The notes below the pieces were generated by a model. It searched no databases. It was not told the DNA's origin and saw only the letters and a list, made by a program, of their open reading frames with translations. Positions 17,724 to 52,634 of a DNA stretch of 64,000 nt are shown piece after piece. The stretch's first letter is position 1. Every line of letters begins with the position of its first letter. Source of the stretch: Escherichia coli (GTDB taxonomy: Bacteria > Pseudomonadota > Gammaproteobacteria > Enterobacterales > Enterobacteriaceae); NCBI RefSeq assembly GCF_044324785.1, contig NZ_CP172127.1, one strand, 5' to 3'. The translations under genes were made by a program, and so were the position numbers.

Positions 17724-18392
17724 TCCTTCCTCAATCTTGAGTAACCCCGTCGTTGAAGGGTTACTCAATTCATCCTGATTATACGCACTGCCATGGTGCA
17801 ACTGCTTCAAATTAAAACTCTGGTCTGACTTCAAATAATTATCATATTATTTATTTGCGTAACGGGATATCAGAAAAAGATATTTAGCCCATTAATTTAT
17901 TAGGATGTTTACATCGGATTTGTGATTAAGTGTGGTATTATTTATTAGCGAAACGTTTCTCTCTTGATTTTTTTGCGCATTCATCAATTTTTCTTATTTT
18001 AAATTTACAATACCTTTGGCGATTGACTTCTCTTTGGGGTGATTGATAGCCGTTAACTGACTGTTTTATGAGAAAAAGTGATATAACTTTTTATTCATTG
18101 CATAGCAGAAAATGTGATATTGCACGCACTATGTAATAACTTCTCCCATTGGCCTGGAACAACTGAACTTATTGAACTATGTTAGAAAATACGTCAGTTT
18201 AAGTATCTGCCTGAACTGGCAAGGTTAAGCACAATGATATATCGGCGCGTATTCCGTTGCATAAGTGTGCAAAAAAAGTGGAAGACGTATCGAGATTTGT
18301 GCGTCTGATCGAGACATGTTTAAAAATGGCTTGCCATAATTAACGTTGTATGTGATAACAGATTTCGGGTTAAACGAGGTACAGTTCTGTTT

Positions 18393-18536
18393 ATGTGTGG
18401 CATTTTCAGTAAAGAAGTCCTGAGTAAACACGTTGACGTTGAATACCGCTTCTCTGCCGAGCCTTATATTGGTGCCTCATGCAGTAATGTGTCAGTTTTA
18501 TCTATGTTATGCCTGCGGGCGAAGAAAACAATCTAA
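18393..18536 (+). CDS. yobF: Small protein YobF (47 aa), co-transcribed with cspC
   Basis: Hand translation [47 protein letters not shown]; stop 12 nt before the cspC start. Confidence 0.8.
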
Positions 18537-18548
18537 GGAATTTTTCAA

Positions 18549-18758
18549 ATGGCAAAGATTAAAGGTCAGGTTAAGTGGTTCAACGAGTCTAAAGGTTTTG
18601 GCTTCATTACTCCGGCTGATGGCAGCAAAGACGTGTTCGTACACTTCTCTGCTATCCAGGGTAATGGTTTCAAAACTCTGGCTGAAGGTCAGAACGTTGA
18701 GTTCGAAATTCAGGACGGTCAGAAAGGTCCGGCAGCTGTTAACGTAACAGCTATCTGA
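18549..18758 (+). CDS. cspC: Cold-shock-family protein CspC
   Basis: 69-aa [72 protein letters not shown] with RNP1/RNP2 motifs. Confidence 0.95.
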
Positions 18759-18803
18759 TCGAATCCACTGATCTGAAGTGTGAATACGCTTCAATCTCGC
18801 TAT

Positions 18804-18830
18804 AAAGCCTCGTCGAATGCGAGGCTTTTT
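18804..18830 (+). terminator. Intrinsic terminator after cspC
   Basis: aaagcctcg-tcgaatg-cgaggctttttt hairpin plus T-run. Confidence 0.8.
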
Positions 18831-18923
18831 ACTTTGCTTTCTCTTCGCTCCAGTCGTTCGGATATTTGCCCGCCGCGTGATTCGCGTTACACTTGCGGCC
18901 TTTAGTATCCTGCCGGAGTTGTC

Positions 18924-36236: not shown

Positions 36237-37922
36237 TTGAAGAAGGTTTGGCTTAACCGTTATCCCGCGGACGTTCCGACGGAGATCAACCCTGACCGTT
36301 ATCAATCTCTGGTAGATATGTTTGAGCAGTCGGTCGCGCGCTACGCCGATCAACCCGCGTTTGTGAATATGGGGGAGGTGATGACCTTCCGCAAACTGGA
36401 AGAACGCAGTCGCGCGTTTGCCGCTTATTTGCAACAAGGGTTGGGACTGAAGAAAGGCGATCGCGTTGCGTTGATGATGCCTAATTTATTGCAATATCCG
36501 GTGGCGCTGTTTGGCATTTTGCGTGCCGGGATGATTGTCGTAAACGTTAACCCGTTGTATACCCCGCGTGAACTTGAGCATCAGCTTAACGATAGCGGCG
36601 CATCGGCGATTGTTATCGTGTCTAACTTTGCCCACACTCTGGAAAAAGTGGTTGATAAAACCGCCGTTCAGCACGTAATTCTGACCCGTATGGGCGATCA
36701 GCTATCTACGGCAAAAGGCACGGTAGTCAATTTCGTTGTTAAATACATCAAGCGTCTGGTGCCGAAATACCATCTGCCAGATGCCATTTCATTTCGTAGC
36801 GCCCTGCACAACGGCTACCGGATGCAGTACGTCAAACCCGAACTGGTGCCGGAAGATTTAGCTTTCCTGCAATACACCGGCGGTACCACTGGTGTGGCGA
36901 AAGGCGCGATGCTGACTCACCGCAATATGCTGGCGAACCTGGAACAGGTTAACGCGACCTATGGTCCGCTGTTGCATCCGGGCAAAGAGCTGGTGGTGAC
37001 GGCGCTGCCGCTGTATCACATTTTTGCACTGACCATTAACTGCCTGCTGTTTATCGAACTGGGTGGGCAGAACCTGCTTATCACTAATCCGCGCGATATT
37101 CCAGGGTTGGTAAAAGAGTTAGCGAAATATCCGTTTACCGCTATCACTGGCGTTAACACCTTGTTCAATGCGTTGCTGAACAATAAAGAGTTCCAGCAGC
37201 TGGATTTCTCCAGTCTGCATCTTTCCGCAGGCGGAGGGATGCCTGTTCAGCAAGTGGTGGCAGAACGTTGGGTGAAACTGACTGGACAGTATCTGCTGGA
37301 AGGTTATGGCCTGACCGAGTGTGCGCCGCTGGTCAGCGTTAACCCGTATGATATTGATTATCATAGTGGTAGCATCGGTTTGCCGGTGCCATCGACGGAA
37401 GCCAAACTGGTGGATGACGACGACAACGAAGTACCACCGGGTCAACCGGGTGAGCTTTGTGTCAAAGGACCGCAGGTGATGCTGGGTTACTGGCAGCGTC
37501 CGGATGCTACCGATGAAATCATCAAAAATGGCTGGTTACACACCGGCGACATCGCGGTGATGGATGAAGAAGGATTCCTGCGCATTGTCGATCGTAAAAA
37601 AGACATGATTCTGGTTTCCGGTTTTAACGTCTATCCCAACGAGATTGAAGATGTCGTCATGCAGCATCCTGGCGTACAGGAAGTCGCGGCTGTTGGCGTA
37701 CCTTCCGGCTCCAGTGGTGAAGCGGTGAAAATCTTCGTAGTGAAAAAAGATCCATCGCTTACCGAAGAGTCACTGGTGACTTTTTGCCGCCGTCAGCTCA
37801 CGGGCTACAAAGTACCGAAGCTGGTGGAGTTTCGTGATGAGTTACCGAAATCTAACGTCGGAAAAATTTTGCGACGAGAATTACGTGACGAAGCGCGCGG
37901 CAAAGTGGACAATAAAGCCTGA
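36237..37922 (+). CDS. fadD: Long-chain fatty acid-CoA ligase FadD (TTG start)
   Basis: Track ORF 36171..37922 trimmed to TTG-initiated (M)[25 protein letters not shown]... (561 aa); AMP-binding motif [11 protein letters not shown] present. Confidence 0.9.
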
Positions 37923-37940
37923 GCGTTAAGTCAGTCGTCA

Positions 37941-37967
37941 GACGCCGGTTAATCCGGCGTTTTTTTT
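37941..37967 (+). terminator. Intrinsic terminator after fadD
   Basis: acgccgg-ttaat-ccggcgt hairpin followed by TTTTTTT. Confidence 0.85.
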
Positions 37968-50631: not shown

Positions 50632-51453
50632 ATGATGCATAGGTTGAATCTCAATGGCTATGAACCCGACCGACACCATGAAGCCGCGGTCGCATTTTGT
50701 ATTCACGCCGGAACGGATGAGTTAACCAGTCCTGTACATCAGCACCGCAAAGGGCAGCTGATACTGGCGCTACATGGTGCAATTACCTGTACGGTGGAAA
50801 ATGCTTTGTGGATGGTGCCGCCGCAATATGCGGTTTGGATACCGGGAGGGGTGGAACATAGCAATCAAGTGACAGCTAACGCTGAACTCTGTTTTCTGTT
50901 TATCGAACCCAGCGCAGTGACAATGCCGACAACCTGTTGCACATTGAAAATATCGCCCTTATGCCGGGAATTAATTTTAACCCTGGCAAACAGGACGACG
51001 ACTCAGCGTGCTGAGCCGATGACCCGCAGATTAATTCAGGTCCTGTTTGATGAACTCCCTCAGCAGCCACAACAACAGCTGCACCTACCCGTTTCTTCTC
51101 ATCCTAAAATTCGCGCGATGGTGGAGATGATGGCGAAAGAGCCCGTCGAGTGGGGGTCATTGGGGCAATGGGCTCGCTTTTTTGCGATGAGTGAACGCAA
51201 TCTTGCCCGACTGATAGTGAAAGAGACGGGGTTGAGTTTTCGCCAGTGGCGTCAGCAGTTACAGCTGATTATGGCGCTTCAGGGATTAGTGAAAGGCGAT
51301 ACTGTACAGAAAGTTGCTCATACGCTGGGGTATGATTCAACAACGGCCTTTATTACTATGTTTAAGAAAGGCCTGGGGCAAACGCCAGGCCGATATATTG
51401 CGGGATTAACTACTGTTTCCCCACAATCAGCGAAACCAGACCCGCGGCAATAA
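50632..51453 (+). CDS. nimR: AraC-family transcriptional regulator NimR (YeaM)
   Basis: 273-aa ORF with N-terminal cupin-like domain and C-terminal AraC helix-turn-helix; 3' end overlaps yeaL by 44 nt. Confidence 0.85.
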
Positions 51454-51856
51454 GCGGGCCAACCGGTACGCCGCGAAACAGCGCCACGCCCAAAACAGTG
51501 CCCACCAGCAGCCCGGCGACCAGTTGCGGCTGGCTGCCCATTAACGTCACGCCGCGCCCACCTAGCCAGGAGACAATAACGCCTACTGCAATTGCCACCA
51601 GCGATTTCCAGTTCAGAAACGAGTGAATCAGGGTTGAGGGCGGTAGCGTCCCGCTGGCGATGGGGGCCATAACGCCAATCGTCAGAATGATTATCCCGAT
51701 ACTTAGCCCCTGTTTTTCAATCCACGGGAAAAAGGTGCTTAACGGTGTGACGCGGACAATGATTAACACCAGAATTGAAACGGCGACAGTGGTGTTATGA
51801 CTGATAAAGCCCAGCGCAGCTAACCCGAGCAGGATCAGCAAAGTGACATCAAACAT
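51410..51856 (-). CDS. yeaL: UPF0756 membrane protein YeaL
   Basis: 148-aa hydrophobic [42 protein letters not shown]... Confidence 0.8.
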
Positions 51857-52025
51857 CGTGGTTTCCTTGCCAAAGAATAATAAGCCTGCTTACTTTACGC
51901 TTGCTGCAGGAAGGAAGTAGAAAATCTTTACGTTTTTTGCATAAAAAATCAGGCGAACTGTCATCAAACTGCCATTTGCGCACGCTAACAATAACGTGAA
52001 AACAGCTATCTCCCGGGGGCATACT

Positions 52026-52130
52026 ATGAACGATCAAATGTTCGTCGAGACTCTGATTATCACGTCATCGTTTTTTGCCATTGCTGTTGTGCTGGTTTTG
52101 TCCGTTCTTCTTATCGAACGGACAGGCTAG
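52026..52130 (+). CDS. yoaI: Small membrane protein YoaI (34 aa)
   Basis: Hand translation [34 protein letters not shown]; its stop abuts the yeaK stop on the opposite strand. Confidence 0.7.
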
Positions 52131-52634
52131 TTACGCAGTGCGGCGGAAATTGACCAGTTCTGGTTGCGCAATGCGCAAATAATCCGCGGTTTTCAAAATA
52201 ACGGATTTATCCAGCATGCCTGCATTGAAGGCGATTTCATCAAATCGTTCGAAGAGTAGGGGATCGGCAACCAGTTTGAGTTTTGGATGGAAGCTGAAAG
52301 GGGGGATCGCGCCGAAGACACAGCCTGTGAGTTCATCGACTTCCGCCGGGCTGGCCAACGAAGCGCGTAATCCGCCTATATGGCTGGCGAGTTGGCTCAG
52401 ATCGGCCTGTTGATCGGCAGCGAGGATCGCCAGAACATGTTGATTTACACCATTGCCTTTGACTTTACATACCAGTGCCTTAGCCCCCTGGCCTAAAGCG
52501 GTGCCACGAATTTCTGACACCGCTTCACATTTACCTACCGCTTCATGGGTAACGACGCGGAAGTCAGCACCTTCTTGTGATAATAAAGCGATTAACCGCT
52601 GATGCGTCACGCTTCCTTTAGCCATTTCAGTCAT
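52131..52634 (-). CDS. yeaK: YbaK/ProX-family aminoacyl-tRNA deacylase YeaK
   Basis: 167-aa ORF MTEMAKGSVTHQRLIALLSQEGADFRVVTHEAVGKCEAVSEIRGTALGQGAKALVCK... Confidence 0.85.
   Translation of the reverse strand: MTEMAKGSVTHQRLIALLSQEGADFRVVTHEAVGKCEAVSEIRGTALGQGAKALVCKVKGNGVNQHVLAILAADQQADLSQLASHIGGLRASLASPAEVDELTGCVFGAIPPFSFHPKLKLVADPLLFERFDEIAFNAGMLDKSVILKTADYLRIAQPELVNFRRTA

Follow-up and report, generated by a model that had tools for sequence, protein, structure and literature searches.

Small membrane proteins acting on two-component systems

MgrB, SafA and PmrR are single-pass membrane proteins of fewer than 70 residues that are induced by two-component systems and that modulate a membrane sensor or enzyme. 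The 34-residue protein YoaI of Escherichia coli K-12 (b1788) is like them in these respects; what they act on, and in which direction, is not the same. MgrB exerts feedback inhibition on PhoQ, whereas YoaI activates a kinase other than the one that induces it. Compared with the MgrB/SafA class, YoaI is also distinguished by its minimal size, by the proposed contact through a tail of four residues, and by the linking of PhoRB to EnvZ-OmpR.

A second point of comparison is MzrA, a 127-aa inner-membrane activator of EnvZ that is about four times as long as YoaI. The periplasmic domain of MzrA contacts the periplasmic part of EnvZ, and the other two-component system that MzrA connects to EnvZ is CpxAR. 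Like MzrA, YoaI is a membrane protein that binds EnvZ, raises OmpR-dependent output and links another two-component system to it (bioRxiv 10.1101/2024.09.13.612970). In contrast to MzrA, hardly any of YoaI lies outside the membrane, and its action is proposed to go through Glu31 in a cytoplasmic tail of four residues (bioRxiv 10.1101/2024.09.13.612970).

At the level of gene arrangement, the relevant comparison is with convergent excludons, tail-to-tail genes whose transcripts overlap at the 3' ends and which typically have a short intergenic distance; yeaK-yoaI has been listed in the E. coli 'excludome' (PMC12288877).

Published function of YoaI in K-12

The protein data on YoaI come from Vellappan et al. 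(bioRxiv 10.1101/2024.09.13.612970), who studied the K-12 protein, identical to the one encoded here; according to the reference list of a review, it has since appeared in Sci Signal 2025. A Ribo-RET initiation peak was found at the annotated yoaI ATG, and the reads rose about 12-fold in low Mg2+ (bioRxiv 10.1101/2024.09.13.612970). YoaI-SPA expressed from the chromosome was recovered in membrane fractions, in larger amounts as Mg2+ fell, and this rise took place without added transcription and without PhoQ (bioRxiv 10.1101/2024.09.13.612970). The sequence-only reading of this locus had proposed ribosome profiling, tagging and membrane localisation as checks on the gene, and these experiments had thus already been published. 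The absence of translation under all conditions, which the same reading named as the outcome that would speak against a gene, is likewise contradicted by the published translation of yoaI.

In two-hybrid experiments YoaI interacted with EnvZ, and not with PhoQ or PhoR (bioRxiv 10.1101/2024.09.13.612970). Deletion of yoaI lowered an omrB reporter only 1.4- to 2-fold, while overexpression of YoaI raised omrB-lacZ more than 7-fold, only in the presence of envZ, and shifted ompC and ompF reciprocally (bioRxiv 10.1101/2024.09.13.612970). The E31A and E31Q variants were stable and located in the membrane, and both had lost interaction with EnvZ as well as its activation (bioRxiv 10.1101/2024.09.13.612970). 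The YoaI-EnvZ contact rests on bacterial two-hybrid data and not on purified components, and the stronger effects on the regulon come from overexpression. Overexpression also caused a growth lag that was independent of EnvZ and of Glu31 and that needed PhoQ (bioRxiv 10.1101/2024.09.13.612970). This pattern makes a second target of YoaI likely, and EnvZ may thus not be the sole one.

The yoaI gene of the window and its identity with K-12 yoaI

The whole stretch of E. coli DNA that was analysed, called the window here, is 64 kb long. Direct reading of the sequence places the ATG start codon of yoaI at 52026-52028 on the plus strand, followed by 34 sense codons and a TAG stop codon at 52128-52130. 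The coding sequence (52026-52130, +) is supported by the open reading frame, by the NCBIfam model NF041475, by identity with K-12, by RefSeq, by selection and by published detection of the protein. Converging on it from the minus strand is yeaK (52131-52634; 167 aa), which is supported by its ORF, by Pfam and by RefSeq. YeaK is a YbaK/ProX-type mischarged aminoacyl-tRNA deacylase (Pfam tRNA_edit PF04073, 95.5 bits). The TAA stop codon of yeaK reads TTA on the plus strand and occupies 52131-52133. The coding ranges of yoaI and yeaK abut with 0 bases between them, and the range 52026-52133 under which the feature had been recorded comprises yoaI plus the stop codon of yeaK. Divergent from yoaI lies yeaL (51410-51856, -), which encodes a DUF441 membrane protein (Pfam DUF441, 151 bits; also annotated in RefSeq). 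The spacer between yeaK and yeaL measures 274 bp and holds yoaI and its promoter on the opposite strand.

The protein encoded in the window is 100% identical to K-12 YoaI. Four nucleotide differences separate the two genes (gene positions 18, 27, 66 and 99), all of them in third codon positions and synonymous. In the 169-bp spacer upstream, three substitutions were found relative to K-12 (51875, 51979 and 52023), none of them inside the Pho box. On the K-12 MG1655 chromosome, yeaK (b1787) occupies 1873574-1874077 and yoaI (b1788) 1874078-1874182 on the other strand. K-12 thus shares with the window the same protein, the same neighbours (yeaK converging and yeaL diverging), the same zero-base junction and the 18-mer of the Pho box, and the stop-to-stop arrangement that had been read from the sequence, with the ORF ending at 52130 and the yeaK stop codon beginning at 52131, is present in both.

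The NCBIfam equivalog model NF041475, 'small membrane protein YoaI', matched the protein with 79.8 bits (E 1.1e-22), residues 1-34 aligning with positions 1-34 of the 34 in the model; the curated cutoff is 45 bits. A Pfam search with the YoaI protein returned no model. RefSeq places 'yoaI: small membrane protein YoaI' (WP_000999630.1) exactly here, between yeaL and yeaK, and the order nimR / yeaL / yoaI / yeaK / dgcJ is shared by the window, strain VCSW7 and K-12. The statement in the sequence-only reading that the track misses the gene can thus refer only to the track which that reading was given, as public annotation includes yoaI. Among 5426 complete E. coli genomes, 5411 matched the surrounding 1.3-kb region and 5410 matched a 201-bp query that covered promoter and gene. 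Among 25 records sampled evenly from the best to the worst match, yoaI was annotated in all 25. The name yoaI and the length of 34 aa given in the sequence-only reading are accordingly correct, on the strength of the K-12 identity and the full-length match to NF041475. The same reading had described the protein as a single helix, and hydropathy agrees with this: the best 19-residue Kyte-Doolittle window of YoaI scores 2.72, and a single transmembrane helix is predicted to make up most of the protein. Ser26, Val27 and Glu31 are all present in the window protein.

The best explanation, which is held with high confidence and which extends to the mechanism, is that the 34-codon ORF is E. coli yoaI (b1788), a gene already annotated and studied experimentally. 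There is nothing new in the finding, which is real, correctly named and already known. The functional behaviour of the window strain is probably K-12-like, as judged from the identical protein and the identical Pho box. The present analysis itself established the ORF and its identity, how far it is conserved, its Pho box and the junction; that yoaI depends on PhoB, is translated, and yields a membrane protein that activates EnvZ was taken from published K-12 experiments.

Length by itself says little about this gene. The ORF list of the 64-kb window contains dozens of ORFs of the size of yoaI, and a 34-codon ORF by itself does not stand out from chance in a stretch of this length, so that the case for a gene must rest on other evidence. 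What goes beyond chance is the homology, the purifying selection, the conservation of a Pho box and the translation data in the literature.

Several further features of the surroundings were recorded. A 62-codon ORF initiated by TTG runs antisense to the promoter and start of yoaI (51849-52037, -); no support for it was found, it is unannotated in the RefSeq records viewed, and it was treated as a chance frame. The genes nimR (+, end 51453) and yeaL (-, end 51410) overlap by 44 bp tail to tail, and the yeaL-nimR pair also appears in the published list of E. coli excludons (PMC12288877). A scan of the whole window at the Rfam gathering thresholds found no known RNA family near 52 kb. Elsewhere it matched the sRNAs SraC/RyeA and SdsR/RyeB, which form a pair on opposite strands, as well as a thermoregulator leader of the cspA type and sroD (2740-2884, 18373-18833 and 37881-37966), which are ordinary E. 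coli features unrelated to yoaI.

Promoter, Pho box and start codon

Upstream of yoaI, the window contains the Pho box TGTCATCAAACTGCCATT at 51959-51976 (+), a PhoB site that is assigned to the yoaI promoter by conservation and by an exact match to K-12 ChIP-seq data, in which TGTCATCAAACTGCCATT is the PhoB site for yoaI/yeaL (Fitzgerald et al., PMC10294691). This 18-mer is unique in the window. Boxes were scored against the consensus TGTCA-N6-TGTCA, that is, two direct repeats 11 bp apart, with a maximum score of 10. A box scoring at least 8/10 was found 42-60 nt upstream of the start codon in 39 of 39 loci with yoaI. When the upstream 130 nt were shuffled, only 48 of 20000 shuffles reached at least 9/10, and in the spacers without yoaI the best score was 7/10 or less.

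Pho boxes replace the -35 element and lie about 10 bp upstream of the -10 element. A putative -10 hexamer, AACAAT, is located at 51987-51992 (+), 10 nt past the Pho box, and the aligned position in other genera reads TATCAAT / TAAAAA. From this arrangement, transcription would start near 51999-52001 and leave a leader of about 25 nt. A generic sigma-70 scan returned no -35/-10 pair at yoaI, as is expected for an activator-dependent promoter. A Shine-Dalgarno-like GGGGG is read at 52015-52019 (+), 6 nt before the ATG, and a purine-rich GGGG, GGAG or GAGG occupies the same place in most orthologues.

These elements also bear on the choice of start codon. The mechanical ORF list opens the yoaI frame at GTG 51996 and gives a product of 44 aa, because the lister takes the first start codon after a stop. 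It is very improbable that this 44-residue form is the product. The GTG is indeed in frame with yoaI with no stop codon between, and Salmonella has an in-frame upstream GTG as well. However, the Shine-Dalgarno-like GGGGG stands before the ATG and not before GTG 51996, which sits 4 nt past the inferred -10 hexamer and hence at or before the likely start of transcription. The NF041475 model has 34 positions and is matched from 1 to 34 throughout, and the published Ribo-RET peak lies at the annotated ATG (bioRxiv 10.1101/2024.09.13.612970). The 10-residue extension peptide is not conserved either: that of E. coli differs from MNRHCCLPEDTI, as read from the Salmonella sequence, and in Enterobacter a TAA closes the frame 12 codons upstream, and no start codon follows it there. 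The model match of 34/34, the Ribo-RET peak, the place of the Shine-Dalgarno-like element and the unconserved extension all led to rejection of the longer form, and the 34-residue product from ATG 52026 is retained.

Published expression data from K-12 describe strong dependence on PhoB. In low phosphate, RNA-seq values for yoaI were about 12,266 in the wild type vs 28 in a phoB deletion, a difference of about 400-440-fold, and occupancy of RNA polymerase and sigma-70 at yoaI was higher with PhoB present (PMC10294691). A reporter for the K-12 yoaI promoter was PhoB-dependent and PhoQ-independent (bioRxiv 10.1101/2024.09.13.612970). Induction of yoaI on phosphate starvation has also been published for O157:H7. 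Expression under phosphate stress, another check proposed from the sequence, is thus covered by the published PhoB-dependent induction.

Distribution and conservation among Enterobacteriaceae

YeaK was used as the anchor for a comparison of 80 loci (L002-L081), one genome per species. A yoaI-like ORF lies opposite yeaK, tail to tail, in 39 of these 80 Enterobacteriaceae yeaK loci. The carriers include all Escherichia species, Salmonella, C. koseri, C. amalonaticus, Enterobacter and Lelliottia, and further Trabulsiella, Yokenella, Kosakonia, Pluralibacter and Cedecea. The orthologues are 31-35 codons long, begin with ATG or GTG and have a purine-rich element just 5' of the start. In the 39 loci, the distance between the stop codons of yoaI and yeaK ranges from -4 to +30 nt. 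Among the yeaK loci sampled, all Escherichia genomes and Cedecea have a distance of 0; the two genes overlap by 4 nt in Salmonella, Trabulsiella, Yokenella and Pluralibacter, and a gap of ~20 nt is found in most Enterobacter. The zero-base junction of yoaI and yeaK is the normal state in the genus Escherichia.

The yoaI gene is under purifying selection. The mean pN/pS among orthologues is 0.35, and omega relative to the window gene is 0.07-0.39 for 11 of the 14 orthologues tested, dS being saturated in the other 3. Variability is 0.39 at third codon positions vs 0.09 at second positions. Across 38 sequences, Ser26 is invariant; at least 80% of them retain Val27, and at least 80% Glu31. Where the listed orthologues deviate, the replacement is conservative (Ile27 in L080, Asp31 in L050). 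This agrees with the published alignment, in which Ser26, Val27 and Glu31 are invariant in 57 orthologues (Vellappan et al., bioRxiv 10.1101/2024.09.13.612970).

These data leave next to no probability for the reading that yoaI is no gene at all but a frame that happens to be open between yeaK and yeaL. Such a reading could draw on the commonness of chance ORFs of this length and on earlier tagging studies which, as reported by Vellappan et al., did not detect YoaI either in rich medium or during envelope, acid or heat stress (bioRxiv 10.1101/2024.09.13.612970). It is opposed by the synonymous nature of all four differences from K-12 (4/4), by a cross-genus omega of 0.07-0.39 together with a steady length of 31-35 codons, by the conservation of a Pho box and a Shine-Dalgarno-like element upstream, and by the detection of YoaI by western blot and through its translation-initiation peak (bioRxiv 10.1101/2024.09.13.612970). 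The synonymous-only divergence from K-12, the purifying selection across genera and the published detection of the protein refute a chance ORF.

About half of the yeaK loci sampled are without yoaI, including those of Klebsiella, Raoultella, the C. freundii group, Atlantibacter and Pseudocitrobacter, and the gene is therefore dispensable in many relatives. The yeaK-yeaL spacer measures 249-328 bp where yoaI is present vs mostly 60-150 bp where it is not, and yoaI and its Pho-box promoter therefore behave as a small presence/absence cassette. In the 41 loci without a tblastn match, a motif scan found no YoaI-like ORF apart from a C-terminal remnant in L052.

Some loci departed from this general picture. 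In L052 (Enterobacter quasihormaechei), only the C-terminal end of a YoaI-like sequence (…ASVLLLENG*) is found just downstream of yeaK, and yeaL is absent from the 1.5-kb flank, which suggests that a rearrangement or insertion disrupted yoaI. Seven loci of Kluyvera and the K. oxytoca/michiganensis group (L034, L040, L053, L071, L074, L076 and L079) have no yoaI, yet their spacers measure 200-324 bp; neither a YoaI-like ORF nor a Pho box was found in them (best score 7/10). A record titled Chryseobacterium sp. 18061 (L036) carries an Enterobacter-like yeaK-yoaI locus with a YeaK 80% identical to that of E. coli. Since such a locus is implausible for a member of the Bacteroidota, contamination or a mislabelled assembly is likely.

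The junction with yeaK

A terminator scan predicted no intrinsic terminator near the junction on either strand. The zero-base junction leaves no room for a terminator, and the mRNAs of yoaI and yeaK may thus overlap at their 3' ends. A hairpin that covers the 3' end of yoaI and the junction (52091-52131) is predicted on both strands. In its inner stem, GTCCGTTC at 52100-52107 pairs with GAACGGAC at 52116-52123 around an 8-nt loop, and in the outer stem 52091-52098 pairs with 52124-52131; codons 26-28 and 31-33 of yoaI make up the structure together with the junction. Its predicted stability is -19.0 kcal/mol vs -8.7 +/- 3.1 kcal/mol for synonymous recodings, of which 0.3% are as stable. The hairpin was considered as an intrinsic terminator and rejected in this role, as the terminator scan was negative and no U-run follows 52091-52131 on either strand.

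Excess stability of the hairpin was tested against synonymous recodings in 25 orthologues. Recodings that matched the observed stability made up 2% in E. albertii, 4% in E. whittamii, 3% in Cedecea, 2% in the mislabelled L036 and a borderline 6% in Pseudenterobacter, and no excess over synonymous recodings was found in Salmonella, Citrobacter or Enterobacter. The hairpin was accordingly rejected as a conserved RNA element of the family; the excess is clear in Escherichia and weak in two or three other loci. A putative role of the predicted structure would be to set the 3' end of the yoaI or the yeaK mRNA, or to make that end more stable.

The layout of the two genes raises the question of coupling at the RNA level. 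ExcludonFinder placed yeaK-yoaI among 165 convergent excludons, with overlapping transcripts in at least 50% of 58 MG1655 transcriptomes (PMC12288877). In low-phosphate RNA-seq, the yeaK values were 389/413 in the wild type vs 709/655 in the phoB deletion (log2 -0.8, q 0.0115) (PMC10294691). The locus could then have an RNA-level role, either as its main function or as an additional one, in which PhoB-induced yoaI transcription runs antisense into yeaK and lowers YeaK in phosphate starvation; the proposed route is that of a convergent excludon, through colliding polymerases or through cleavage by RNase III where the 3' ends pair. Such a role is considered possible and rather unlikely. It is consistent with the 0-nt gap, with the lack of a predicted intrinsic terminator on either strand, with the entry in the ExcludonFinder list, and with a tail-to-tail spacing that stays between -4 and +30 nt in 39 of 39 yoaI loci. 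The direction of change also fits read-through interference, as yeaK is 1.7-fold lower where yoaI is induced (~12,000 vs ~28 in wild type and phoB deletion). However, this change is small, and many unrelated genes, ribosomal protein genes for example, shift as much in the phoB mutant; with regard to the reciprocal regulation of excludons, yeaK-yoaI thus offers a weak and non-specific hint. Furthermore, the YoaI peptide is under purifying selection and has a Glu31-dependent activity at the protein level, so that a role of the RNA could only be additional to that of the peptide and never a replacement for it.

A functional junction, at which PhoB-driven read-through from yoaI and the Escherichia-specific hairpin together would set the 3' ends and stability of both mRNAs and lower YeaK, is more doubtful still. 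If true, the locus would gain an RNA-level output on translational proofreading besides the YoaI peptide. A link between yeaK expression and the Pho response that arises from the abutting genes would be modest in scope.

Proposed mechanism and significance

The preferred reading remains that of yoaI as the gene of a small membrane protein with the function published for K-12. Under phosphate limitation, phospho-PhoB would bind the Pho box at 51959-51976 and recruit RNA polymerase. The resulting mRNA, probably with a short leader, would be translated from ATG 52026 into the 34-residue YoaI, which is predicted to consist mostly of one transmembrane helix with residues 31-34 (ERTG) as a short cytoplasmic tail. 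Magnesium limitation would also raise the abundance of YoaI, by a post-transcriptional route without PhoQ. In the inner membrane, YoaI would contact EnvZ via the conserved Glu31 and increase the output of EnvZ-OmpR, with omrB and ompC going up and ompF going down. YoaI would in this way link phosphate and magnesium stress signals to the osmotic/envelope regulon.

The K-12 reference annotation includes yoaI, NCBI has a naming model specific to it, and a functional study has been devoted to it; finding it here adds nothing to the biology. If the track given to the sequence-only reading truly is without yoaI, curated small-protein models, for instance those of NCBIfam, should be added to it. The lesson is that a 105-nt gene skipped by a gene caller can be real, conserved and regulated.
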